64,000 nucleotides of DNA from Patescibacteria group bacterium. Its GTDB lineage: Bacteria > Patescibacteriota > Patescibacteriia > UBA11705 > DATKZF01. The DNA lies in contig JBMORT010000002.1 in NCBI GenBank assembly GCA_049319825.1, positions 204,072 through 268,071 on the forward strand. Reading direction: 5' to 3'. Every line of letters begins with the position of its first letter. Position 1 is the first letter of the stretch. Below, in pieces: positions 9,122 through 55,975 of this stretch. The notes under the pieces were generated by a model that saw only the letters and a list, made by a program, of their open reading frames with translations, ran no database searches and had not been told where the DNA came from. The position numbers and the translations under genes were made by a program.

Positions 9122-11444
9122 AAACAAAATTTTGATTTTTCTGATTTTTTTATCGGCCGCGTCATTTATCGGGCTGGCGCACCGCGTCGAGGCCGCCGCG
9201 GATTTGCAGCAAATCATTCCGCAGCTTCGAATTCCGATCCCTGATATATTGACTGAATTTCAGCAACCGACCTTCAGCACCGAAGGTGATAAAAGCTACG
9301 TGTACATCCCCTGGATCGCTCAGTATATCAGCGCCGTGTATCGCTACTCTTTGGTCATCGCCTCGGTTATATCCGTGATCGCGGTCATGATCGGCGGGTT
9401 TTTATATCTGACCAGCGCCGGCTTTCCATCCAGAATCGAGCAGGGCAAAAAATTTATTTTCGGCGCCATCACGGGCATGGTAATTATTATTTCATCATAC
9501 GTACTGCTTAACCTGATCAATCCGGAATTGGTGCGATTAAAGCCGATTAAGGTGCAAACAGTGGTTGGCGAGGTGGTGGTCGAGGGTGCGGCTTGCGAAA
9601 ATTTGAATCCGACGCAGGTCGCGGTCATTACGCCCACAGGCCCGGCGCGTCCGGATCAGGGACGATTTGCCTGCGCTAAGCCGTATGATGTCACCTCCAT
9701 CAACTCGCAGTATGTGGTGCCGACCGGCCAGCAGTGCCGCGGCGGTCATTGCGAAGATAATCAGGTCTGTACCGCTTCCGGCTGCGTTCAAGGATTGTTT
9801 TATGGCACCATCACTCAGCAGAGCGTGCCCGGATTCGGTTTGCGTTACGTTGATACAATTTATTTGTTTTTGGAAGAAGATGTCACGGGATCATCCGTCC
9901 AATTGACTCTGGGATCGATTTTCGGCACCGGATCGGCGGTGGAGACCGGCAAAGCTATTTATAAACAAGAGTATGGCGATCGCCCGACAAGCTTTTTTAT
10001 TCCCAGAACGCCGGAAGTGGTGAACGCCATTAAAGAAAACGGCGGCCGGGTAATGCTGGGAGTGGAGATCAATGACACCGGACAAAATATCAGCCAAATT
10101 TCAAAAGAATTATACGGAGATTTCGCCGGATTTTTAATTGGTAAGACGACTCCGACTATCGATGACGATTATTTTATCGGGAAAAGCGCCGCAGATCCGC
10201 GGCAGGCCGCCTGGATACAGCCGCAATGCAAAGTTTGTTTTTCTTTCGAAGTTAACGAGTCGGGCAAAGGCTACGCCGCTACCGCCGGTTGCCAGATGTG
10301 GAGCGCGCTCGAGGTGGTCAACAGCACCCAGCCGATCGAAGTAAACATCCGAGTCGGCGATTTTTTGGAAGATTATAACACTCAATCCGTTTGTGATTAT
10401 TCAAAGACATTGACCAAGACCGATGCCAAACCGGGCGGTCAATGTTTGGCCAGTGAATTGTATACCGTGAAAAAAATTGGCGGAGTTGATTATACTTGCC
10501 GGCCGGTGACTGCCAATTCTTCGGAATGGACGCGTCTGGCCGGCGCTCAGCAAAACGAGGTCTGTGACAATTTTGATTTTGTGCAGCCCAATGTTCCGCT
10601 GAACGGCACTGTTCCCGGCAATTGGAACAGCACCACCACCCAAGTGACCTGCGCCGATCAAAATACCGGCTGTTCATGGGCGATCCACGGCGCGACGCAA
10701 TGCGAATCGTCCACGCCGCTGACAAGATTGTACTGCTATGGCCGCTGTTTGGCCGGCGGCAACCAAGCGGTGGTGTCCGCTCCCGGGGAGCGCTGCGCCG
10801 CCGGCGGTGTCTGCGGTAAGTACGCAGGCGATCAATTGATATGTAATTATACTCAAAATATCTGTCAATTTGGAGAATGGGGCGATCAGTGCGTGCGGGA
10901 TGCGGATTGCAAAACTCCGGAATATCGATGCGACACATCGGAAAAAGCATGCGTGCGCACGCAAAAAGCCGCACAGCAGTGGCAGCATTGCATCGATAAT
11001 AATGATTGTCCTCAAGATTACTCGTGTTTGGAGGCGGGGTATACAAATGACTTGACTAAGTGCAAAGGTAATTTATCCAAGATGGCCGATCCGACAGAAG
11101 CGGCAAATTCAGATATCGATTACGGTATTTGCTGGCCAAACGATAAGATTGACGCTGATGGCGATACTGAATCCGATTGGGATGTGTTCGGGGTTTGCTA
11201 TTGCACCAGCTACACCGATTGCCAAGGAAACGTCAATTGGCCCGAAGCGACTTTTTGCAATACCGGCGGCGATAACTATTGCACCAAGCCGATCGCCGGC
11301 GCGCGCTGCGACGATCAGCTCGGGGTCGGTCTGCCTTCGGCGGCGACAAAGATAATCAGCCAGCCATTCCTATATTTGGATATTGGCAATGATTTGATCT
11401 GCACCTCGACCGATATTCTAAAATCCAAAAGACAATTATATTGA
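9111..11444 (+). CDS. secreted/membrane cysteine-rich protein with N-terminal TrbC/VirB2-like two-helix pilin module
   Basis: signal peptide, two hydrophobic helices separated by SAGFPSRIEQGKK loop, then ~600 aa Cys-rich region; overlaps porA stop by 11 nt and ends 1 nt before porB ATG. Confidence 0.6.
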   Translation: MTNKNKILIFLIFLSAASFIGLAHRVEAAADLQQIIPQLRIPIPDILTEFQQPTFSTEGDKSYVYIPWIAQYISAVYRYSLVIASVISVIAVMIGGFLYLTSAGFPSRIEQGKKFIFGAITGMVIIISSYVLLNLINPELVRLKPIKVQTVVGEVVVEGAACENLNPTQVAVITPTGPARPDQGRFACAKPYDVTSINSQYVVPTGQQCRGGHCEDNQVCTASGCVQGLFYGTITQQSVPGFGLRYVDTIYLFLEEDVTGSSVQLTLGSIFGTGSAVETGKAIYKQEYGDRPTSFFIPRTPEVVNAIKENGGRVMLGVEINDTGQNISQISKELYGDFAGFLIGKTTPTIDDDYFIGKSAADPRQAAWIQPQCKVCFSFEVNESGKGYAATAGCQMWSALEVVNSTQPIEVNIRVGDFLEDYNTQSVCDYSKTLTKTDAKPGGQCLASELYTVKKIGGVDYTCRPVTANSSEWTRLAGAQQNEVCDNFDFVQPNVPLNGTVPGNWNSTTTQVTCADQNTGCSWAIHGATQCESSTPLTRLYCYGRCLAGGNQAVVSAPGERCAAGGVCGKYAGDQLICNYTQNICQFGEWGDQCVRDADCKTPEYRCDTSEKACVRTQKAAQQWQHCIDNNDCPQDYSCLEAGYTNDLTKCKGNLSKMADPTEAANSDIDYGICWPNDKIDADGDTESDWDVFGVCYCTSYTDCQGNVNWPEATFCNTGGDNYCTKPIAGARCDDQLGVGLPSAATKIISQPFLYLDIGNDLICTSTDILKSKRQLY

Positions 11445-21735: not shown

Positions 21736-21766
21736 AAGCGGCGATTTGCTTGGCCAATCGCCGCTT
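21736..21766 (-). terminator. terminator hairpin AAGCGGCGATT-tgcttggcc-AATCGCCGCTT (copy 1)
   Basis: 11-bp perfect stem overlapping the stop codon of gene 21765..22364, followed on minus strand by U-run. Confidence 0.55.
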
Positions 21767-22364
21767 ATGCAATTATTCTTTTTCTATTATAATGGATGGC
21801 CATGACGGCTACAGAGCCATTACCCAAAATGCCATTGACAAGCGGATATAGCAGTTGCGCGATGTCGCCTGACCAGTTTGAAATGATAACCGCCAAAGTC
21901 AGGCAGTAAGAGATGACTCCTAAAATCCATGGAGGCGATTTTTCTTTCAGCCTGCCGCTTTTAAGCCCCACCCAAATGGGAACAAAGGAAACGAACAAAA
22001 TTATTTGGAGCATCAGATTAGCCAGTCTGGCATTACCAGTGGTTAGCCAAAGGATTCCGACTGCGGCAGCCAGCGCCAGGCAGAAATAATCAAGCTTGCT
22101 GAATTCGACAAATTTACGTTTGATGTAAGAATACACAAAGACAATGATGGTCATGGCCGCGCAAAATATTGCCAATAAGCATTTTTCCCAACTGATGACC
22201 ATGATTGCAAAGGTGACTGCGTTCATGCTCATTACTACCAGCAAAATAATCCATGTTGCCGGATTGGGAATGGATTCCCCTTTCGAGATTTGCTTTAGAT
22301 AAATAAAATAAACCGGAATAATCAGGAGGCTTGACACCAGCCCGAGCATTTCCGATGCGGTCAT
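21765..22364 (-). CDS. hypothetical polytopic membrane protein (about 6 TM)
   Basis: start chosen at MTASEM with AAGGGAGA RBS 5 nt upstream; hydrophobicity pattern only. Confidence 0.5.
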   Translation of the reverse strand: MTASEMLGLVSSLLIIPVYFIYLKQISKGESIPNPATWIILLVVMSMNAVTFAIMVISWEKCLLAIFCAAMTIIVFVYSYIKRKFVEFSKLDYFCLALAAAVGILWLTTGNARLANLMLQIILFVSFVPIWVGLKSGRLKEKSPPWILGVISYCLTLAVIISNWSGDIAQLLYPLVNGILGNGSVAVMAIHYNRKRIIA

Positions 22365-22427
22365 TTTATTCTCCCTTCGTCTGCAGTTCAAAAAATTATA
22401 TTTTAAATAATGGATTTTGTCAATTAA

Positions 22428-22458
22428 AAGCGGCGATTTGCTTGGCCAATCGCCGCTT
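22428..22458 (-). terminator. terminator hairpin, identical copy 2 of the 21736..21766 element
   Basis: 35-nt identity to copy 1 including full stem-loop. Confidence 0.5.
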
Positions 22459-26552: not shown

Positions 26553-26616
26553 ACGAATATTTAATCCGAATGCTCCGAATATCCTATCCGAATACCACGA
26601 ATATCCCAAAAGTTTG

Positions 26617-26641
26617 ATCCATGATCCATGATCCATGATCC
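26617..26641 (+). repeat. GATCCAT heptamer tandem repeat (x4) abutting start codon
   Basis: gatccatgatccatgatccatgatccatgat directly 5' of ATG at 26642. Confidence 0.7.
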
Positions 26642-26851
26642 ATGATTTATATGCCCATAGAAAACAGAGACGACGTCGATCCCGGCATGGAAGTGCTGAT
26701 TGTCCTAAAAAAAGATCAGCCCACCGGAAAATTGACCAAAGGTATTGTCAAAGAAATTTTAACCAATTCCGCTTTTCATCCGCGGGGGATCAAAGTCAGG
26801 CTCGAAGACGGGCAGGTGGGCCGGGCGCAGGAAATATTGGAGAATAAATAA
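26642..26851 (+). CDS. YwbE-family small protein (DUF2196-like)
   Basis: PGM.V.IVLKKDQ.TGKLT.GIVK.ILTNS..HP.GIKVRL..GQVGR pattern matches B. subtilis YwbE. Confidence 0.65.
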   Translation: MIYMPIENRDDVDPGMEVLIVLKKDQPTGKLTKGIVKEILTNSAFHPRGIKVRLEDGQVGRAQEILENK

Positions 26852-27368: not shown

Positions 27369-28517
27369 ATGAATAACGCTTTGCCGCAAATATTCAGTAA
27401 AAAATGGTTTCTGGGCATTCGCCGTGAAGAATCCTTATTTTTTTATTCGTCAAAGTTTATTGACCGGGAAAAATTTACCCTGAAAAAGTACGAAAATAAT
27501 TTTGTCGAGTCAATATTAATTCCTCATGAAGATAATGAGCTGATTCGTGCTTTCAATTCCGATCAAGCCAAGCTTTTTCATCAGGAGTCAAAGGAAAAGG
27601 TTCTAAAAGATTTTTCAATAATAGAAAAGTTCATCAGCCATGACGACACGTTATGGGTTGAAATCCAGAAGCTTTCAGAAAAGCTGGCCAAATCGGTTGA
27701 GAAGCTCGACTTCAAAAAAGCGAAAGGAATTTTTCAGCGCATTCTTGAAAAATACGGCGAGCATGGCGCGTATTTTTTCTTTATTTTCTCAGTGGGCATG
27801 ATGCTTGAGGGAAATAAAGAAGAAGTTGCAAACTCAAAGCCGGCTTTGGCCGCGCATGACAAATGGAGAAATGAGGTGGCATTTAAAGAAGAAAAAATGG
27901 GCGAAAACTTGTTTGGGTTTTTTAAATTACTAAAATCTCAAAGCGTTTTGAACACTGCGGAAAAAGAGATGATGGAATTTTTGACTGCCGGTGAAGTCTT
28001 GGCTTTGGCCAGTTGTCAGATAACGAAAGAAGAAATCGAAAATAAAATCGCGCGCCGGAAGCAAAATGGCTATGTCTATTTATATTTGAGGGATTTGCAG
28101 TATCAAGACGTGGTTATTGATGATCTTTCGACAGTTGAAGCTGTTAAAAAATATTTTGAGAGTATGGAAGCGCCGGCAGGCAAAGTGATCGAAGGCCAGG
28201 TCGCTTTCCCCGCGAAAGAGAAAATTATCGGCGAAGCTGTTGTTCTCAAAGATAAAAGCGAATTAGGAAAAGCGGATTTGGCGGGAAAAATTTTGGTCAC
28301 CATCCAAACCACGCCGCATTTTATTCCGTATTTAAAAAATGTTAAGGCGATAATCACCGACGAAGGCGGCATCACCTGCCACGCGGCGATTGTGGCCAGG
28401 GAGTTAAAAATACCGTGCGTCATTGGCACGAAAATTGCTACAAAGATTTTAAAAGATGGCGACAAAGTGGAGGTGGATGCGGAAAAAGGGGTGGTGAAAA
28501 TTATTAAGAATGTTTGA
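27369..28517 (+). CDS. PEP-utilizing-enzyme mobile (phosphohistidine swivel) domain protein with unique 290-aa N-terminal domain (paralog 1)
   Basis: C-terminal ILVT..TTP.F.P..K...[28 protein letters not shown] matches PpsA/PPDK central His domain. Confidence 0.7.
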   Translation: MNNALPQIFSKKWFLGIRREESLFFYSSKFIDREKFTLKKYENNFVESILIPHEDNELIRAFNSDQAKLFHQESKEKVLKDFSIIEKFISHDDTLWVEIQKLSEKLAKSVEKLDFKKAKGIFQRILEKYGEHGAYFFFIFSVGMMLEGNKEEVANSKPALAAHDKWRNEVAFKEEKMGENLFGFFKLLKSQSVLNTAEKEMMEFLTAGEVLALASCQITKEEIENKIARRKQNGYVYLYLRDLQYQDVVIDDLSTVEAVKKYFESMEAPAGKVIEGQVAFPAKEKIIGEAVVLKDKSELGKADLAGKILVTIQTTPHFIPYLKNVKAIITDEGGITCHAAIVARELKIPCVIGTKIATKILKDGDKVEVDAEKGVVKIIKNV

Positions 28518-28523
28518 AATTAT

Positions 28524-29618
28524 ATGTTAAATAAAAAGAAAAAATTAGTTTTTGAAAAATCAATTACTAGGGACTGGCCGCTTTTTATCGTACAAATGTT
28601 GCATAAAGGTTTTACAAAAGAATTTGAAAAACAATTTAAATTTAGATATTTAGAAGTTTTATTTGATTGTTTTTCTGACCATTTAGATATATATAGAGCA
28701 CCTATTGAACATATTGAGAAAATGAGAGCCTTTATTTTAAATAATCTGCGCAGAAATCCCAATTTCATAAGAGAGGTTGCTAAAAAGTTAATAGATTATT
28801 TTGAAAATTTTAAAGATATAATTCATGAAATTGATAATAAAAGTTTAGTTGTAACTTCAAATAAAGAATTGTCACAAATTATAAAAGCTTTTATTAAAGC
28901 ACATCAAGAGTTGGAACCTTGTTTTGTTATGATGTTTTGGTTTCCAATACAAATGGAAAATCATCAAAATAAAGAAAAATATAAGCCAGATATTGATATC
29001 GCGGCAAAAATGCGGGCAAAGACCGAGAAAGTTGGCCCAGAGGGTGATAGAATTGCTAGAAAACTTTCTGAAGAAGTCAGCAGAAGAATGTTTGGGAATA
29101 AGGATTTTGCCAAATTTATTTCTTTAAAAGAAACGCACGCTTTTTTAACAAAGAATAAAAAAGTTAATAAAAAGATTATTGAAAAAAGAAAAAAGGGTTT
29201 TATATACGGAGCTTTAGGAATTAAATATATAAAATTGTCAGACTATGCAAAACTTGAAGGGTTGGAAGTAAAAACAACATTAGCAGACATAAACAATAAT
29301 TACATTAAAGGTTCAATTGCTTACAAAGGATATGTGAAAGGTAAAGTGAGAATTATTATATCAAAGAAAAATATTAAAACCCTGAAAAATGGTGAAATTT
29401 TGGTCACCGCAATGACAACACCTGAATTTGTCCCAGCAATGAAAAAAGCGGCGGCAATTATTACAGATGAAGGCGGCATCACCTGCCACGCGGCGATTGT
29501 CGCTAGAGAATTGAAAATTCCGTGCGTGATCGGCACTAAGGTCGCCACCAAAGTGCTAAAGGATGGCGACCAAGTAGAGGTTGACGCGACCAAGGGGATT
29601 GTCAGGATTTTAAAATAA
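28524..29618 (+). CDS. PEP-utilizing-enzyme mobile domain protein with different N-terminal domain (paralog 2)
   Basis: same C-terminal swivel domain; 32-nt stretch identical at DNA level to paralog 1. Confidence 0.7.
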
Positions 29619-29750
29619 TTTTTATAGAATATTATGGAACGCATGATGTATGTCCCAGGCATGGAAATATTAGGTATCAATAGCGAGTACTTTACAAGTA
29701 ATATATATTATTGTAAGATACACAATGATTGTTATTAATCCTACAATAAT

Positions 29751-31571
29751 ATGCTTGATAAATTATTCAATTCAAAAACCCGCGTGGCTGTTTTAGGCTT
29801 ATTTTTCAATGATGAAGACAAAAAATCTTATATCCAGGAAATCATCAAATCAGCGAAGACAGACGCGGCCAATACTCATCGCGAATTGGATAAGCTTGAA
29901 AAGCTCGGCATTCTAAAGAGCAAAAAACAGGGCAACCAAAAATATTATTTTTTAAATAAAGACAATGCTTACTTCGAAGCTTTGAAAAGGTTGTTCGCGG
30001 TTTACCGCCGGAAAGACGATGGCTGGTACCTGCTCGAAGAAATTCCCAATGGCACTCCCACCTTTGTGGCTGATGTCTGCAATTCCAAGCTGTCAGTGGA
30101 ATGGAATGAGAAAAAAGGCTTCAAATATCCTCCCACGGATTTTCTGACCATCTACCGGAACGGCGTGGCCAGCATTTACTTTGTAAAATCTCAATTCGAT
30201 AAATACAGCCGCAGCATGCTGGACGGCTTTATCGCCGATCCCGCTTCTTTGCACAAAGTGAATGAAGAAATCATCAAGCAGTCGGACAGCTTGCGCGCTT
30301 ATTCACAAAAAGTATCTGCCATGAATCTGAAAATATTGGACGACAAAGAGCTGGGCAGTGTATTTTCTAATTTTTATAGAGAATATGAGCGCACTCATAT
30401 GTGGGCCTGGCCGCATACTGCGCCTGACTTTGGCGAAGCGTATTTATCCAAGTATTCTTTCGCGTATCTTAATGAGCGGCTGAAAAAAACCGGTAAAAAT
30501 TATTCGGTTGGCGAGATTTTCTCCAAGCTGACTTCGCCGACAGAGGAAAGCAATGCCCAAAAAGAATATCGCGACTTGCTTGCGATTTTGGATTATATTT
30601 TAAAGGAGAAATCATTGAGCCAATACTTTGCTGAAACCGAAACCCGCTTTATCCTGCGCGACCTGATGAAAAAAAATGAAAAGGCCTGGCAGATGATCGT
30701 CAATCATACTGATAAGTACGGCTGGCTGGGCTATGGCCTGATCGGCCCTGGCTGGAGCGAAGAGTACTTTATTGATATTTTGTGCAGCTTGATCAGGCAG
30801 CAAAGCGATCCGCAAAAGCTTTTGGCCAAAATCGAAGCTGAGAGGAAGGAATTGGCAAAGGAGCAGGAAAATATTTTCCAAGAGCTAAAAATTGACGACA
30901 GGAATCGAGAATTCTTTATCGGCGCCAAAGGCCTGGTCTTCACCAAGGGTTATCGAAAAGATTCATTATTCTACTTTTTCAGCGTGCTGGAAAATATTCT
31001 CAATGAATTGTGCAGAAGATACTATTTGTCAATGAACCAGGCGCGAATGCTCTTCCCGCATGAGATCGAAGATATATTAGGCGGCCAAAGCTTTGACTTC
31101 TCGGTTTTGAATGACAGGCAGAAATTATGCGCGCACTATTCAGCCGGACGCACCGATTATTGGAATGACACCATTGTAATCGGCGCTGAAGCGGAGAAAT
31201 TGATCAATAAGCTGCAATTCATTGAAGAAGACATTTCTGATATTAAAATTTTGAACGGCGAATGCGCCTCGCCCGGCAAATCCAGGGGCCGGGCCGTGAT
31301 TGTCAATGTCACGAAGGACATGCAGAAAATGAAAGACGGCGATATCTTGATTTCCATTGCCACCAATCCTGACCTGGTGCCGGCCATCAAGCGCGCCTCA
31401 GCCATTGTCACTGATGTGGGCGGGATCACCTGCCATGCGGCCATTATTTCCCGCGAGCTGGGAGTGCCCTGCGTCATTGGCACGAAATACTCGACCAAAG
31501 TGCTCAAAGACGGGGATATCATCGAAGTCGATGCCACGCACGGCAAAGTGACTATTATTAAAAGAGCGTAA
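29751..31571 (+). CDS. wHTH plus large middle domain plus PEP-utilizing-enzyme mobile domain protein (paralog 3)
   Basis: N-terminal ArsR-like wHTH, ~420-aa middle region, C-terminal [22 protein letters not shown]. Confidence 0.7.
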   Translation: MLDKLFNSKTRVAVLGLFFNDEDKKSYIQEIIKSAKTDAANTHRELDKLEKLGILKSKKQGNQKYYFLNKDNAYFEALKRLFAVYRRKDDGWYLLEEIPNGTPTFVADVCNSKLSVEWNEKKGFKYPPTDFLTIYRNGVASIYFVKSQFDKYSRSMLDGFIADPASLHKVNEEIIKQSDSLRAYSQKVSAMNLKILDDKELGSVFSNFYREYERTHMWAWPHTAPDFGEAYLSKYSFAYLNERLKKTGKNYSVGEIFSKLTSPTEESNAQKEYRDLLAILDYILKEKSLSQYFAETETRFILRDLMKKNEKAWQMIVNHTDKYGWLGYGLIGPGWSEEYFIDILCSLIRQQSDPQKLLAKIEAERKELAKEQENIFQELKIDDRNREFFIGAKGLVFTKGYRKDSLFYFFSVLENILNELCRRYYLSMNQARMLFPHEIEDILGGQSFDFSVLNDRQKLCAHYSAGRTDYWNDTIVIGAEAEKLINKLQFIEEDISDIKILNGECASPGKSRGRAVIVNVTKDMQKMKDGDILISIATNPDLVPAIKRASAIVTDVGGITCHAAIISRELGVPCVIGTKYSTKVLKDGDIIEVDATHGKVTIIKRA

Positions 31572-31575
31572 AAAT

Positions 31576-32514
31576 ATGTTCACAAAAATTTTCAAGGAAT
31601 TAAACTATAAAAGCGTCGACATCGCCGGCGGCAAAGGAGCTTCGCTGGGAGAAATGACTCGGGCCGGCATTCCGATTCCTCCCGGATACGTTGTTTTGGC
31701 CGGAGCTTTTGATAAATTTTTGGAAGAAACGGATTTAAATGTGGAAATAAAGGCTGTGATCGACGAGGTTAATTACGAAGACGTGAAATCAGTTGACGTA
31801 GCGTCGAGCAAAATCAGAGATTTAATCGCTGATGCGGATTTTCCGGCAGATATTGCCGGCGAAGTCCAAGAAGAATTCAAAAAATTGGGCGCTGAATACG
31901 TGGCGGTGCGAAGTTCAGCCACGGCTGAAGATTCTTCGATCGCTTCCTGGGCCGGCGAGCTGGAAAGTTATTTGAATGTTAAAGAAAAAGGCCTGCTTGA
32001 CGCAGTGAAAAAATGCTGGTCGTCTTTATTTACTCCGCGGGCGATTTTTTACCGCAAAGAAAAAGGATTGATCGACAGCAAGGTTTCAGTCGCGGTGGTG
32101 ATTCAAAAAATGGTCAATAGTGAAATTGCCGGCATTACCTTTACAGTTCATCCGGTGACCAAGGATCCGAATCAAATAATCATTGAAGCCGGATTCGGTC
32201 TGGGCGAGGCGATAGTTTCCGGCAGTATTACCCCCGATAGCTATGTGATTGAAAAAGATACCTGGAATATCATTGATATCAATGTGGCAGAGCAGGAGCG
32301 CCAGCTGGTTCGCGTGCCGGCCGGCGGCAACGTTTGGAAGGAGCTGCCTGCAACTAAGAAAGAAAAGCAAAAATTGACCGGCGAGCAAGTGGTTGAATTG
32401 GCACAATTATGCTATGACATTGAAAAGCACTATAATTTCCCGTGCGATATTGAGTGGGCGTTTGATGCCGGCAAGTTTTATATAACGCAGTCAAGGCCGA
32501 TAACGACTTTGTGA
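31576..32514 (+). CDS. stand-alone PEP synthase / pyruvate phosphate dikinase N-terminal ATP-grasp (PPDK_N) domain protein
   Basis: GGKGASLGEM, VRSSATAED, DIEWA..GKFYITQSRP motifs align with E. coli PpsA N-terminal 320 aa; no His or TIM-barrel domain in this ORF. Confidence 0.75.
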   Translation: MFTKIFKELNYKSVDIAGGKGASLGEMTRAGIPIPPGYVVLAGAFDKFLEETDLNVEIKAVIDEVNYEDVKSVDVASSKIRDLIADADFPADIAGEVQEEFKKLGAEYVAVRSSATAEDSSIASWAGELESYLNVKEKGLLDAVKKCWSSLFTPRAIFYRKEKGLIDSKVSVAVVIQKMVNSEIAGITFTVHPVTKDPNQIIIEAGFGLGEAIVSGSITPDSYVIEKDTWNIIDINVAEQERQLVRVPAGGNVWKELPATKKEKQKLTGEQVVELAQLCYDIEKHYNFPCDIEWAFDAGKFYITQSRPITTL

Positions 32515-32550
32515 AGGCAGTAGGCAAGAGGCAATAGGCAGTAGGTAAAT

Positions 32551-32642: not shown

Positions 32643-33278
32643 TTGGCAATCAACGGCTATAAAAAAATCGAAGCCCGGGTGGAAAGAATCAAAGAGTGGT
32701 TCAGGCTTCACGGCTTTGAAATTGAGGTTCCTTTTCCGAGGAGCGAAAACGGATTTCAAATCGAGATTCCTTTTCCGGGGATTAAAAGCCAATTTCAATC
32801 TTTCAATGCCCAATACGCGTTGAGACAAGAGAATGGCTGGGAGCTTTTTTACCGGCCGTCGAGCAGGGAAGTTTCGTATTTCGAATTTTTGGCGGAAGTT
32901 GGACAGAAATTTCATTGGACAACGAGAATCGGTGTTCGAAAAAGCATCAATTGGACATGGACGCAAAGCGGCTATTGGTTCTGGGCGCAAATTTGTCCTG
33001 CCGCGCCCGTTTTTGGCAAATGCGAAGACGTGGTGCCGGCGCGTTGCCAGGAAAATCAGCGGCCGCCGAGCATTGAAGAATATTTGCTGATGTATCATTT
33101 GCACCGATGCGATACTGGCCGCAAGCTGGATCACAATCCCGCGGTTTGGCTGACGACCAAGCTCCGCGGACACGCGCTGAGCGCGCTCGGCGATTGCGGC
33201 GGCATCAATGTCGGCATTGCCGACAATTTCACGCCCAACCCCGGCTGTGGCTTGCGCTTGGTGAAAGTGATCGGTTGA
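32643..33278 (+). CDS. hypothetical Trp-rich protein
   Basis: TTG start 6 nt after AGGAGG; internal repeat GF(E/Q)IE(V/I)PFP; minus-strand 260-aa ORF over same region rejected. Confidence 0.45.
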   Translation: MAINGYKKIEARVERIKEWFRLHGFEIEVPFPRSENGFQIEIPFPGIKSQFQSFNAQYALRQENGWELFYRPSSREVSYFEFLAEVGQKFHWTTRIGVRKSINWTWTQSGYWFWAQICPAAPVFGKCEDVVPARCQENQRPPSIEEYLLMYHLHRCDTGRKLDHNPAVWLTTKLRGHALSALGDCGGINVGIADNFTPNPGCGLRLVKVIG

Positions 33279-33445
33279 TTTTACCCTGTTTTCATAAAGC
33301 GGGGTTTTTTGTTTTGTCGAAGTGGCCGGACAAAAATTAATTGATATTCGCAAAGAAATAGTGTGATTTTTCGCGTGTTGTCGAATGTGGAAAACATTTT
33401 ATTCGATTTTTTGATACCCCTCGGGTTATGATGAAAATATAATTT

Positions 33446-33979
33446 ATGATTTATAAAGAATCAAAACAATATCGTTTACCCGGTTATAATTACGCCAATG
33501 ATGGATTTTATTTTGTGACGATTTGCGCCCAGAACATGCGAATGTTTTTTGGGAACGTTGTCAACGGCCAAATGATTTTGTCAAAAATCGGAAAAATCGC
33601 CAATCAATATTGGCTCGAAATTCCCAAACATTTTCCGCATGCGCGGTTGCATGAATACATTGTTATGCCGCACCATGTCCATGGAATTTTGGAGTTGCGA
33701 ACCCGTGTTGTTGTAGGAACGCGCCATGGCGCGTTCTTACAACAAAATTCCATGGGCATGCATCCATTGGTCAGGAATTCGTTGTCATCAATCCTCAACC
33801 ATTTCAAGGGGGCAGTGAAAAAATGGTGCAATCGAAACAATCATGGAAATTTTGCCTGGATGTCACGATTTCGCGATACAGTTATTTTGCATGAAAACGC
33901 ATTATACAACTTCCGCAAATACATCATTAACAACCCGTCAAATTGGGAATTGAAGAAAAACAATCCTGATTTGATGTAA
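33446..33979 (+). CDS. REP-associated tyrosine transposase (RAYT) / IS200-like HUH Y1 transposase
   Basis: YR.PG..YFVT N-terminus, HUH motif PHHVHGIL, C-terminal RFRD..I.....Y....YI.NNP, matching E. coli RayT pattern. Confidence 0.7.
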   Translation: MIYKESKQYRLPGYNYANDGFYFVTICAQNMRMFFGNVVNGQMILSKIGKIANQYWLEIPKHFPHARLHEYIVMPHHVHGILELRTRVVVGTRHGAFLQQNSMGMHPLVRNSLSSILNHFKGAVKKWCNRNNHGNFAWMSRFRDTVILHENALYNFRKYIINNPSNWELKKNNPDLM

Positions 33980-33995
33980 TATAATATCAAAATTC

Positions 33996-34019
33996 ATCGC
34001 GCTTGCCGCGATTTTTTTT
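33996..34019 (+). terminator. terminator ATCGCG-cttgc-CGCGAT + T8
   Basis: follows RAYT stop. Confidence 0.55.
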
Positions 34020-34132
34020 ATTTTTGAAGAATGAATCAGGGGTGCGTCAATATATTTGAAAAACCGGTGCCGATGCTGTATAATTATTGTAATAATTATT
34101 GATATTATTAATTATTTTTTATTTAAAAAAAT

Positions 34133-35479
34133 ATGGACAGAACGCTCAATTTGGAGGTAGTCAATAAAAAAGGAGAGGAAGTGATGATCGAAGGCTGGGT
34201 CGATGGCCGCAGAAACATGGGAAAAATCGTGTTTCTCGACATGCGCGACCGCACCGGAGTTCTGCAGGTCGTTTTGGTGCCCGGCGAGCTCGATAAAGAT
34301 TCCCAAAAACTGATTGATAACATCAGGCCGCAATTCGTATTGGCGATTGAAGGCATCGTTAACGAGCGGACAGGCAAAAACGCCAATCCGCAGATGGAGA
34401 CCGGCACAGTGGAAGTGCTGGCTAAAAAAATCACGGTTTTGGCCGAGGCGGAAACGCTGCCTTACGAGCTTGGTTCGGAAATGAAAATGGATACGTACCT
34501 CGATAACGCGCCGCTCAATTATCGAGATGAAAAAGCAAGAGCGATTTTTAAAGTGCAGGCCGCGTTGATACAGGGTTTTAGGAGCTTTTTAACGGCCGAA
34601 GGTTTTACCGAATTCCAGGCGCCCAAGCTGGTGGCCGAGGCCACTGAAGGCGGCGCCAATGTTTTCAAAATCGATTATTTCGGCAAAGCCGCTTATCTGG
34701 GCCAGAGTCCGCAATTTTACAAACAAATTATGACCGGCGTCTATGAGCGGGTTTTCACCTGCGGAAACGTTTATCGGGCGGAAGCGCATCACACATCACG
34801 GCATATTAATGAATATACCTCGCTTGATTTTGAAATGGGATTTATCAAAGATCATACGGATGTGATGGACATGACTCGCAGAGCTTTGACGGCAATGATG
34901 AATAACGTGGTTAAAAATTGCGATAAGCAAATCAAACTTCTTGATGCGGCCGTGCCCGAAGTGCCGGCGGAGATTCCGGCCTTGAAATTGGCCGAAGCGC
35001 AGAAAATTTTAAAGCATGAATTCGGCCAGGACTGCGAAGGCGAGCCGGATCTCGAGCCGCACCATGAAGAATTGATCTGCCAGTATGCCAAGCGGGAATT
35101 TAATTCTGATTTTATTTTCATCACTCATTATCCGGTCGAAAAAAGGCCGATGTACACCATGCCTGATGAAAAGGATAAGGGAAAGACCAAAAGCTTTGAC
35201 CTGCTTTTCCGCGGCTGCGAAATAGTGACCGGCGGTCAGCGTATCCATGACTATGAAATGCTGCTTGATAATATTAAAAAATTTAAAATGGATCCCCAGG
35301 ACTTTGAATTTTATTTAGAGGCGTTCAAATACGGCATGCCGCCCGAAGGCGGGATCGGCATGGGGCTGGAGCGGGTGACCCAAAAACTGCTTGGCCTGGA
35401 AAATATCAAGCAGGCCACGCTGTTTCCGCGCGATGATGTAAGGATAGATTTGCCTTTAAGTAAAGAAAATAACAAATAA
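34133..35479 (+). CDS. aspS: aspartyl-tRNA synthetase, archaeal/eukaryal type (likely non-discriminating)
   Basis: class II core YRAEAHHTSRHINEYTSLDFEM; C-terminal GMGLERV...LFPRD..RI.P. Confidence 0.8.
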   Translation: MDRTLNLEVVNKKGEEVMIEGWVDGRRNMGKIVFLDMRDRTGVLQVVLVPGELDKDSQKLIDNIRPQFVLAIEGIVNERTGKNANPQMETGTVEVLAKKITVLAEAETLPYELGSEMKMDTYLDNAPLNYRDEKARAIFKVQAALIQGFRSFLTAEGFTEFQAPKLVAEATEGGANVFKIDYFGKAAYLGQSPQFYKQIMTGVYERVFTCGNVYRAEAHHTSRHINEYTSLDFEMGFIKDHTDVMDMTRRALTAMMNNVVKNCDKQIKLLDAAVPEVPAEIPALKLAEAQKILKHEFGQDCEGEPDLEPHHEELICQYAKREFNSDFIFITHYPVEKRPMYTMPDEKDKGKTKSFDLLFRGCEIVTGGQRIHDYEMLLDNIKKFKMDPQDFEFYLEAFKYGMPPEGGIGMGLERVTQKLLGLENIKQATLFPRDDVRIDLPLSKENNK

Positions 35480-35505
35480 CAAAATCCAAATAACAAATAA
35501 ATCAC

Positions 35506-35550: not shown

Positions 35551-35629
35551 CCAAACAATTTTGAAAATTTGGACATTGGAGCTTTAATATTATTTGTGAT
35601 TTGTGATTTGACATTTGAGATTTATTGCA

Positions 35630-35956
35630 ATGCGTTTATCAAAGCTCCAAAAATACATTCTCATTCAATGCTATCAAGATAAAGGCGACAAAATGCACCG
35701 CGATCGCCTGATTGGATTTTATGGAAATATTCAGCAAGCGCCCAAATCTAAAGTTCAGACAAAGATAATCACCCGCAGCTTGGAAAGCCTGATTGATAAA
35801 GAATTAATGACCGGATTCGGCGTGCGCACTCCGCATAAGTGGTTCATAAAGGAAATCAGACTGACATCAAAAGGCAAAAAAGAAGCGAAGAATCTGCTCG
35901 GCGAGCAGATGAGTTTGCCATTAAAAACAAGAAAGGCGATAGGCGATAGGCGATAA
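35630..35956 (+). CDS. hypothetical basic protein; 3' end overlaps AGGCGAT x3 repeat
   Basis: 108-aa ORF upstream of scpA; no motif. Confidence 0.35.
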   Translation: MRLSKLQKYILIQCYQDKGDKMHRDRLIGFYGNIQQAPKSKVQTKIITRSLESLIDKELMTGFGVRTPHKWFIKEIRLTSKGKKEAKNLLGEQMSLPLKTRKAIGDRR

Positions 35957-35975
35957 GCGACACGCATTTCAAATT

Positions 35976-51912: not shown

Positions 51913-52029
51913 ATGATCTTAATACTATTATAACAGATTTAGGCGAATGTCAAATACGTTTCAGTTGTAATAAAAAGGCAATAGGCAATAGGCAGTAGGC
52001 AGTAGACGACTGACATATGCGCCGAACTA

Positions 52030-52134: not shown

Positions 52135-52795
52135 ATTACGAATTTTCCATACTAGAAGATAAAGCATAGCTATGTTTTTGTTACAAATATTACGAATTTT
52201 ACGAATTACAACCACTAATTTGGGAAATCGTAATTTTGTTACGAATTACAATCACTTTCGAGATTTAGGAATTCGAGCTTCACAATCCCTGAATCAAACT
52301 CGGTTTTGATCCATCATCCATGTTCCATGATTCAAGACTTTATCAACAATTCAATTTTTGCATTTCAATTCATATTTGATAAAATAAAGCCGAGGGTCGC
52401 CGGAAACCCTAGCATCAACAATGTCATTGGGGTTACAATCCGGTACCCTCACTGTATTCGATATAAAAAATACAAAATTTGAAATTGGGGATAGACAATG
52501 GAAATCTCCTGTTTCTAAATATTCTTCAGTCAACTCAATATCTCTCAAATCCTTATCCTTGCCTGATGGCTCGCGCAGTAGTTTGTCAGATTCGCTTAAT
52601 CGGGCAATATAAAAAAACAGGACGCCGGGTCCTGATTTTATATTGGGAATTGGAAACTGGAAATTAGAAATTGGGAAAATGTCTACGGATCTATGAAAAA
52701 ATGGATCAACGGATTGCAAACACATATAACATATAACTGATGAATAAATCATTGTTATTTGTTTCATGCTTCATGCTTCATGCTCCATGGACAAA

Positions 52796-55907: not shown

Positions 55908-55975
55908 TTTTGGGAATTGGAAATGGGGAATTGGAAATGGGGTTAATCCTAGTTTCCAATTTTCATTTTTTAGTT

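Follow-up and report, generated by a model that had tools for sequence, protein, structure and literature searches.

REP-associated tyrosine transposases (RAYTs, also called TnpAREP), which take their name from repetitive extragenic palindromes (REPs), are generally viewed in the literature as domesticated. One group, subclass 2.4 of the TnpAY1 proteins, was defined by Quentin, Siguier, Chandler, and Fichant (2018; BMC Genomics 19:475, PMC6006769) and corresponds to RAYT Group 4 of Bertels, Gallie, and Rainey (2017; PMC5581495). The members of this subclass have a median length of 194 aa, a variable insertion between β3 and αC (PMC6006769), and three motifs, including NH[IFV]H for HuH, WQ for the W motif, and YIxNNP for the Y motif (Table 1 of PMC6006769). 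Their REPs were described as "long", "double foot" (5′ GT[AG]G ... C[TC]AC 3′), and "inserted in tnpAREP" with the reading frame kept, and the authors considered the REP-encoded peptide to be a peripheral extension with little effect on activity, that is, a neutral insertion (PMC6006769). In addition, most genes of subclass 2.4 were reported with flanking REPs within ±1 kb. In this study, we analyzed a 64-kb stretch of contig JBMORT010000002.1 from a Patescibacteria group bacterium (the window, 64,000 nucleotides in full), and we consider it very likely that a 177-aa open reading frame (ORF) near its middle is an intact and selectively maintained RAYT of subclass 2.4, which looks like an orphan in the window.

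Another described system is TnpAREP of Escherichia coli (RayT or YafM, PDB 4ER8), which belongs to subclass 2.2, RAYT Group 2 (PMC3479197; PMC3333891). The residues of this enzyme that bind the GTAG foot of the REP are W94, Q95, E100, H101, and R104 (PMC6006769). According to Messing et al. (2012; PMC3479197), Q95 contributes to the sequestration of foot bases, and A3 and G4 stay available for pairing with the CT cleavage site. Mutation of GTAG abolishes cleavage in E. coli (PMC3479197). Furthermore, in-frame GTAG REPs in housekeeping genes have already been described by Di Nocera et al. (2013; PMC3733652).

The Transposase Gene and Its Family

The gene and the codons of its conserved motifs are as follows.

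33446..33979, plus strand: gene of the probable RAYT/TnpAREP, a Y1 HUH transposase of the subclass 2.4 type (ATG ORF, 177 aa)
33674..33682, plus strand: codons of H77-V78-H79, the HUH metal-binding motif (H59/H61 of E. coli TnpAREP in the profile alignment)
33857..33889, plus strand: codons of W138-L148 (WMSRFRDTVIL), the counterpart of the GTAG-binding segment W94-R104 of E. coli TnpAREP in the profile alignment
33920..33937, plus strand: codons of Y159-I-I-N-N-P164, the Y motif YIxNNP (Y159 corresponds to the catalytic Y115 and N163 to the active-site N119 of 4ER8)

The protein is 100% identical to NCBI MFZ5364821.1, cataloged as "MAG: transposase [Patescibacteria group bacterium]" (MAG, metagenome-assembled genome), and the exact protein was found on one contig in a collection of 15 billion proteins. 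An earlier note on this DNA had read the gene as a RAYT-like Y1 HUH transposase, and this reading was borne out. The NCBIfam family NF047646 (REP_Tyr_transpos, REP-associated tyrosine transposase) matched residues 16–165 (E = 1.5e-10, 41.1 bits). The database search gave 40 relatives, and eight homologues with 38–51% identity carry a precomputed PF01797 assignment. In addition, the profile of 34 family sequences matched E. coli TnpAREP (4ER8; E = 4.5e-7) with the HUH, W, Y, and N positions aligned, W138 being the counterpart of W94. The AlphaFold model of the protein had a predicted local distance difference test score (pLDDT) of 84.9 and a predicted TM-score (pTM) of 0.79. All 30 of the top 30 PDB matches of this model in Foldseek were Y1 HUH transposases (IS608, ISDra2, IS200, and TnpAREP; E from 8e-6 to 9e-4), and the best query TM-score (TMq) was 0.54, with 4ER8. 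Meanwhile, searches against PHROGs and a single-sequence search against PDB gave nothing relevant, the PDB matches being chance ones to NADH dehydrogenase chain 6.

The motif HHVHGIL lies at residues 76–82 and the segment RFRDTVILHENALYNFRKYIINNP at residues 141–164, as the earlier note had it. However, another pattern that it gave, YR.PG..YFVT, has to be corrected, because there are eight residues, not two, between PG and YFVT. H77 was invariant and H79 was kept in at least 90% of the sequences in the database-hit alignment (100% and 99%, respectively, in 71 relatives). Y159, which is located in the predicted helix 150–171, was conserved in 100% of the 71 relatives, and each of H77, H79, Y159, N163, and P164 was kept in at least 97% of them. 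Judged from its motifs and its modeled fold, the 177-aa protein is a divergent homologue of the RAYT-like Y1 HUH single-strand-DNA transposases with intact HUH and Tyr.

The search of genomes gave at least 567 relatives, and they were distributed in Parcubacteria, Cyanobacteria, Bacteroidota, Chloroflexota, Ignavibacteria, Desulfobacterota, Nitrospira, and others. The 40 database matches and the 567 genome matches share the architecture [IV][VI]MP[ND]HxH[GA]I, WQ..., and YIxNNP, and it is on this shared motif architecture that the assignment of the nearest relatives to subclass 2.4 rests. The window protein has the Y motif of the subclass (YIINNP). It also has the β3-αC insertion with an in-frame double-foot REP, which lies between the strand 77–84 and the helix 113–130.

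A Double-Foot REP inside the Gene

The strongest sequence feature of the locus is an intragenic palindrome, which was absent from the earlier note. It consists of the following nested parts.

33713..33740, plus strand: in-frame 28-bp double-foot REP, GTAGGAACGCGCC/ATGGCGCGTTCTTAC, encoding V90-Q99
33708..33745, plus strand: extended 38-bp palindrome (19 + 19 nt, one mismatch, 95%, no loop)
33674..33760, plus strand: 87-nt compound hairpin with 18-nt outer arms, a 16-nt bulge, and the 38-bp palindrome inside

The two feet of the 28-bp REP differ: one is GTAG, and the opposite strand has GTAA at the other (GTAG...TTAC). The pattern GTA[AG]GAACGCGCCATGGCGCGTTC[CT]TAC covers both foot versions. 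The outer 18-nt arms (33674–33691 and 33743–33760) are the HUH-coding CATGTCCATGGAATTTTG and its inverted copy CAAAATTCCATGGGCATG (94%), and they are conserved in P0002, the closest homologue. Among the hairpins of the window with 10 or more pairs, 22 in all, the 38-bp palindrome is the longest, and the single-stranded DNA (ssDNA) fold of the 116-nt region 33660–33775 had an energy of −30.5 kcal/mol (z = −5.2). In the protein model, the REP peptide (residues 89–101) is the only internal segment with pLDDT below 50. The peptide V89-N101 is thus predicted to be disordered and peripheral, and an insertion of the REP would be tolerated there for this reason.

To place this palindrome in its family, 80 related loci were fetched from species-representative genomes, and 69 distinct related genes were compared. 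A palindrome of the form GTAG-N10/N10′-CTAC, perfect or near-perfect, was found in the same spot in about 50 of the 69. Its centre varies among loci, both arms changing in concert, and it is read in at least two frames (VETRxxASL, RDAINRVST, and DVACNVST). In 16 loci, the same palindrome also occurs just upstream and/or downstream of the gene, sometimes kilobases off. The REP centre of P0003 and P0004 (58% and 56% identity to the window protein) is GAACACAAA. Meanwhile, the centre of L085 and L088 (52% and 49% identity) is GAACGCGCC, as in the window gene. The REP centre does not track the protein phylogeny, which suggests, at the level of these sequences, replacement of the REP.

The exact 28-mer with GTAG feet was found in 12 metagenomic loci, at both intergenic and in-frame genic sites. 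For example, the 28-bp REP GTAGGAACGCGCCATGGCGCGTTCCTAC is in frame (VGTRHGAFL) in an ORF resembling cysteinyl-tRNA synthetase, in which KMSKS is present, and in an ORF resembling radical S-adenosylmethionine (radical-SAM) proteins. The in-frame metagenomic sites are as follows.

L094 2655–2682 / L095 5651–5678: in-frame 28-bp REP
L090 339–366: in-frame 28-bp REP

Furthermore, L092 and L095 are two copies of the 28-bp REP on one contig of 312,703 bp. This spread of the 28-mer over other metagenomic genomes means that the REP family is mobile, or once was.

Some related loci showed peculiar arrangements. At about 280–860 of L088, there is a RAYT relative with the identical REP and a frameshift just after it: the N-terminal part ends with ...VGTRHGAFLQGKSKIHSAH*, the C-terminal part runs on in another frame, and the sequence just past the stop resembles a tRNA gene by eye. 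L088 may be a pseudogene or may contain a sequencing error at the hairpin. P0003 (L097 461–1027) reads MPNHVYGIL, in which the second HUH histidine is changed to tyrosine, and it keeps a perfect GTAG...CTAC internal REP. In L006 (9653–9836), three identical double-foot REPs stand in tandem at 78-nt spacing just upstream of a RAYT gene that has no strong internal palindrome. In L070, two RAYT-type genes with the same internal REP (2043–2070 and 11069–11096) are 9 kb apart.

Constraint on the Gene and on the Palindrome

The comparison between the window gene and P0002 gave a ratio of nonsynonymous to synonymous divergence (dN/dS) of 0.26 with a dS of 0.64 over the whole gene. Purifying selection acts on the 177-aa protein, and overall the gene shows no decay. 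The synonymous divergence was uneven: dS was 0.17 in the hairpin codons vs 0.82 elsewhere, about 5-fold lower (Fisher p = 0.005). The independent pair P0003 and P0004 showed the same, with a dS of 0.06 in the hairpin vs 2.1 in the rest (p = 1e-4). These values suggest that the palindrome is held at the DNA level, and they fit either selection or concerted evolution through gene conversion or hairpin-templated repair.

Guide-Binding Segment and REP Feet

In the profile alignment, the window equivalents of W94, Q95, E100, H101, and R104 of E. coli TnpAREP are W138, M139, D144, T145, and L148. The other relatives have Q in 69 of 69 and R in 66 of 69 cases at the two positions occupied by M139 and L148, and only the window protein (M, L) and its sister P0002 (T, L) deviate. 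Taking 30 conserved columns together, the window protein deviates in three, which is the upper edge of the family range and not outside it. Meanwhile, the REP of P0002 is a perfect palindrome with GTAA/TTAC feet on both arms. The change of the feet, seen in one clade of two members, may reflect either a loss of function followed by drift or a joint evolution of enzyme and REP towards a new guide.

REP Census of the Window

The gene is present in one copy in the window (tblastn). The palindrome inside the gene is the sole REP seen in the 64 kb, and neither it nor its 10-nt arm recurs above chance elsewhere in the window. The hairpin census of the window gave no REP family, the other hairpins near the gene being terminator-like, and a permissive scan of the 64 kb for GT[AG]G feet gave 19 unrelated matches, compared with 4–14 in shuffled sequences, and no family. 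Since the 64 kb contain a single copy of the gene and no REP on its flanks or elsewhere besides the internal one, the system looks orphaned in this window.

The earlier note had called the gene a domesticated, REP-associated transposase that might drive the repeat families seen in the window. Taken as a whole, its observations were confirmed in part and its interpretation was supported in part. For "domesticated", what we found is a single copy within 64 kb and purifying selection, while simple vertical inheritance at a fixed locus is argued against by the neighborhood of P0002 (see below). The association with REPs, as far as it means REPs on the flanks, did not hold, since no hairpin family with GT[AG]G feet occurs within ±1 kb or in the 64 kb. 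The proposed role as driver likewise finds no footing: the repeat families of the window are tandem arrays of heptamers with differing units and without GTAG-foot hairpins.

Comparison with Described Systems

The window protein and all of the close relatives that we found share several features of subclass 2.4. They have YIxNNP, a conserved W, no C-terminal extension domain, and a size of about 180–195 aa. In addition, they have a highly variable insertion between β3 (HUH) and αC with an in-frame double-foot REP, and they show a patchy spread over many phyla and an apparently low copy number, the window gene being present once in the 64 kb. The window protein differs from the subclass in having HHVH, WM, and L in place of the conserved R of the guide segment, in one REP foot mutated to GTAA with no flanking REP in ±1 kb, and in its host, which is a Patescibacteria MAG. 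Our literature search found no paper connecting TnpAREP with Patescibacteria.

E. coli TnpAREP is alike in fold (TMq 0.54), in HUH, and in the counterparts of the catalytic Tyr, the Asn, and the Trp. It is also alike in having a family of GTAG-footed palindromic substrates and a single-copy gene (single within the 64 kb for the window gene) amid housekeeping genes. However, the two proteins are only about 18% identical. The E. coli gene has REP arrays and bacterial interspersed mosaic elements (BIMEs) on its flanks and no internal REP, unlike the window gene. In the E. coli REP, the hairpin is imperfect and bulged and its GTAG is left unpaired, whereas the window palindrome is perfect and the foot itself is paired. 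Furthermore, the inhibitory C-terminal tail of the E. coli enzyme (E161) is absent in the window protein, and Q95, H101, and R104 are not conserved in it.

The TnpA proteins of IS200/IS605 (IS608, ISDra2, and IS200; subclass 1.1, PF01797) share the Y1 HUH fold and the catalytic residues, and they are the top structural matches, with E of about 1e-5. The window protein is unlike them in giving no PF01797 match and in its W and Y motifs, and its locus shows no subterminal left and right hairpins, no tnpB, and no sign of multiple copies. The intragenic insertions of REPs (PMC3733652) and of Rickettsia palindromic elements (RPEs) are similar in that short GTAG-tagged palindromes lie in frame in functional genes. 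However, the host gene in the window encodes the presumed cognate enzyme, and the whole subclass has the insertion at one site, the loop after HUH.

Overall, the gene fits into a described subclass as an ordinary if slightly aberrant member, and the REP inside it, though real, was known before. The internal palindrome was considered as a new discovery and this was rejected, since it had been published (PMC6006769). The gene class, the single-copy "domesticated" character, and the REP within its own coding sequence were all published in 2017–2018. What the locus adds is an example from a reduced Patescibacteria genome that has the enzyme and no REP population within the visible 64 kb. It also adds two sequence pairs that quantify the constancy of the intragenic REP at synonymous sites amid divergence of the gene, and a clade in which both the residues binding the GTAG foot and the foot have changed. 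Such a clade could give a small testable handle on how TnpAREP reads its guide.

Mechanism and Alternative Explanations

By analogy with E. coli TnpAREP, the RAYT would be a monomeric Y1 HUH enzyme acting on ssDNA, and its counterpart of the W-Q...R segment would recognize the GTAG foot together with the hairpin. As in E. coli TnpAREP and the IS608 family, the REP hairpin may be bound on ssDNA, for example at the replication fork. H77 and H79 would hold the divalent metal that activates cleavage, Y159 would cut the DNA to leave a 5′-phosphotyrosine link, and re-ligation would move or amplify REPs.

Several points weigh against the assignment to subclass 2.4 and against this mechanism. The Pfam search that the earlier note had proposed was run, and PF01797 (Y1_Tnp) gave no match for the 177-aa protein at E ≤ 0.01 or even at E ≤ 10. 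The score for NF047646 (41.1 bits) lies under the curated cut-off of 80 bits. In place of the NH[IFV]H of the subclass, the protein has H76-H77-V78-H79, position 76 being N in 93% of relatives, including P0002. In place of WQ, it has W138-M139. No flanking REP was found within ±1 kb of the gene. In addition, the mechanism is carried over from an enzyme of subclass 2.2 with about 18% identity. Furthermore, the description as an orphan may be wrong, as it covers 64 kb and the contig is at least 385 kb long.

An intact RAYT of subclass 2.4 has to be weighed against other explanations. Although we think it doubtful, it is a serious possibility that the gene is a functionally decayed or re-purposed relic, which neither recognizes nor moves REPs and is either kept for another role or being lost. 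The changes of Q to M and of R to L, at invariant or near-invariant positions among the 69 relatives, would fit such a relic, and so would N76H, as 93% of relatives keep N there. Also in keeping with it are the T of P0002 at the Q position, which suggests relaxed constraint, the feet of the REP (GTAA in P0002 and mixed GTAG/GTAA in the window), and the lack of any other REP in the 64 kb. Furthermore, the GTAG mutation abolishes cleavage in E. coli (PMC3479197), and decay is seen among the relatives, with L088 frameshifted after its REP and HVY for HVH in P0003. However, the whole-gene dN/dS of 0.26, the intact HUH, Tyr, and NNP, and the three deviations in 30 conserved columns, which are within the family range even if at its upper edge, argue against decay, and both the conserved 5′ region (described below) and the palindrome are maintained. 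An autonomous insertion sequence (IS) of the IS200/IS605 type (TnpA subclass 1.1), recently inserted between housekeeping genes, is hardly credible. The GC content of the gene (0.40, compared with 0.46–0.51 in the neighbors), the different neighborhood of the closest homologue, and the terminator-like hairpin at the start of the conserved 5′ region, as at the left end of IS200, would agree with an insertion. Nevertheless, the motifs are of the TnpAREP type (YIINNP and NH.H-like) and not the DH[VI]H, W[TS], and Y[IV]ENQ of IS200 (PMC6006769). The similarity ends at the stop codon without a conserved right end, and no second copy in the 64 kb, no tnpB, and no subterminal hairpin pair were found.

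Two further explanations concern the palindrome itself. That the hairpin is a selected cis-element, which may be an mRNA structure throttling translation, an autorepression site, or a protected "master copy" of the REP by which REP and enzyme are inherited together, seems unlikely to us. In two independent pairs, synonymous divergence in the hairpin is 5- to 30-fold below that in the rest of the gene, and most family members across phyla have the palindrome, in the same protein loop and in different reading frames. In addition, the hairpin reaches into the HUH codons through its 18-nt outer arms (94%, conserved in P0002), and the z-score of the fold is −5.2. However, gene conversion from other REPs or hairpin-templated repair accounts for the low dS equally well, and a strong palindrome is missing in about a quarter of the relatives. 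Multiple or partial tandem copies in several relatives look like scars of repeated insertion, and a neutral insertion in a peripheral loop is the view in PMC6006769. Furthermore, the centre of the window REP is shared with the relatives of 52% and 49% identity and not with those of 58% and 56%, which fits replacement rather than conservation. Very unlikely is a retargeted system, in which enzyme and REP have co-evolved to a new guide (GTAG to GTAA, with Q95 changed to M or T and R104 to L), altering the cleavage dinucleotide that is recognized. The REP of P0002 is perfectly palindromic with GTAA/TTAC on both arms, a compensated change. The changed base, G4, is one of the two foot bases (A3 and G4) available in E. 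coli TnpAREP for pairing with the CT cleavage site (PMC3479197), and the deviating residues are confined to the clade of the window protein and P0002. However, this is one clade of two sequences, without statistics. The window copy retains one GTAG foot, the difference between M and T at the Q position resembles drift, and no GTAA-footed copies were found outside the window gene and P0002. A combination, in which the internal REP is a maintained cis-element of the subclass 2.4 RAYTs (a hairpin for self-recognition or control of expression, or a protected master copy of the REP family) and enzyme and element have shifted jointly to a GTAA guide in this lineage, is quite unlikely. If true, the joint shift would be a natural retargeting of a Y1 HUH endonuclease.

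Upstream and Downstream Regions

The regions next to the gene contain the following features.

33283..33305, plus strand: terminator-like hairpin with T-run, between the gene of a 211-aa hypothetical protein and the conserved 5′ region
33305..33445, plus strand: conserved 5′ region, kept in the loci of P0002, P0003, and P0004 despite differing neighbor genes
33314–33325 and 33378–33390, plus strand: two TTGTCGAA repeats, both upstream of the gene
33411–33438, plus strand: promoter-like TTGATA-16-GAAAAT, which would start transcription at about the ATG
33996..34012, no strand assigned: terminator-like hairpin ATCGCG-CTTGC-CGCGAT with T-runs on both strands, 17 nt past the stop codon

The conserved stretch extends over about 140–165 nt 5′ of the ATG and holds both TTGTC[GA]AA repeats, the block TTGTCGAATGTGGAAAACATTTT, and a small stem (AATGT/ACATT). 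The earlier note took the gene to be flanked by direct repeats starting at 33313 and 33379. However, both repeats are upstream, starting at 33314 and 33378. They share an exact core of 8 nt (11 nt at 91%), and by our own estimate about 0.2 occurrences of the 8-nt core would be expected by chance in the 167-nt spacer. Both copies are conserved upstream of the three homologous loci, and thus they are probably part of a conserved 5′ region and not scars of insertion. They were also considered as target-site duplications or ends of an element, and this was rejected, since both are upstream and both are conserved in the homologous upstream regions. The conserved 5′ region probably holds the promoter or leader of the gene itself, and the putative promoter at 33411–33438 would give a leaderless or near-leaderless mRNA. 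As for a structured RNA or leader in this region, we found only two short invariant stems and no covariation, in an alignment of four sequences, and Rfam gave only sub-threshold chance matches over 33100–34200.

Downstream of the gene, the similarity to the homologous loci stops at the stop codon, and there is no conserved right end. The terminator that the earlier note had placed here was found as the hairpin at 33996–34012.

Genomic Neighborhood and Other Repeats

The neighbors of the transposase gene are housekeeping genes, in agreement with the context given in the earlier note. Upstream there are genes for a PEP-utilizers mobile-domain protein and a PPDK_N protein and the 211-aa hypothetical ORF (32643..33278; GC 0.513), and downstream there are aspS, scpA, and scpB. 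No tnpB was found among the neighboring genes. The closest homologue, P0002, sits elsewhere, between a PDDEXK_1 gene and a gene for an extracytoplasmic function (ECF) sigma factor. Vertical inheritance supported by synteny with P0002 was considered and rejected, because the neighborhood of P0002 is different, and this difference argues against simple vertical inheritance at a fixed locus. Together with the lower GC of the gene, it is compatible with past horizontal movement.

The window also contains nine short tandem arrays of heptamers, each with roughly 4–5 copies and with differing units, as follows.

26615–26646: TGATCCA
32515–32545: AGGCAAT
35467–35500: AAATAAC
35592–35623: ATTTGAG
35934–35960: AGGCGAT
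51976–52005: AGGCAAT
52642–52674: ATTGGAA
52763–52789: TTCATGC
55910–55942: TTGGGAA

By a strict count, there were five arrays in the window vs none in ten shuffled sequences. The four arrays whose gene context was checked (32515, 35467, 35592, and 35934) are at or near gene ends. The nine arrays resemble the short tandemly repeated heptamers (STRR) of cyanobacteria. A link between the arrays and the RAYT was considered and rejected, because the arrays are non-palindromic, lack a GTAG foot, and have differing units. To our knowledge, GTAG-footed hairpins are the only substrate known for TnpAREP; thus, the known TnpAREP mechanism gives no reason to link the arrays, which lack both palindrome and foot, to the enzyme.

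The only repeated hairpin pair in the window has no GTAG foot. It consists of two near-identical GC-rich hairpins of 31 nt (AAGCGGCGATTTGCTTGGCCAATCGCCGCTT; 97% over 38 nt) at 21736–21766 and 22428–22458, which bracket the gene of a 208-aa predicted membrane protein (21765..22391, minus strand).

Upstream of the transposase gene, a 238-nt segment occurs three times with 61–70% identity (28288–28525, 29395–29632, and 31342–31579), and the third copy is the PEP-utilizers mobile-domain end of the ORF 29751..31571. Such a pattern is suggestive of three paralogs in tandem, each with a phosphohistidine swivel domain at its end, and of a PPDK_N gene standing by itself after them. The 211-aa hypothetical protein had no family match except a weak, sub-threshold one to DUF6225. 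Its ORF contains a 39-nt tandem duplication (32715–32798; 2.2 copies, 77%), which encodes GFEIEVPFPRSEN / GFQIEIPFPGIKS.

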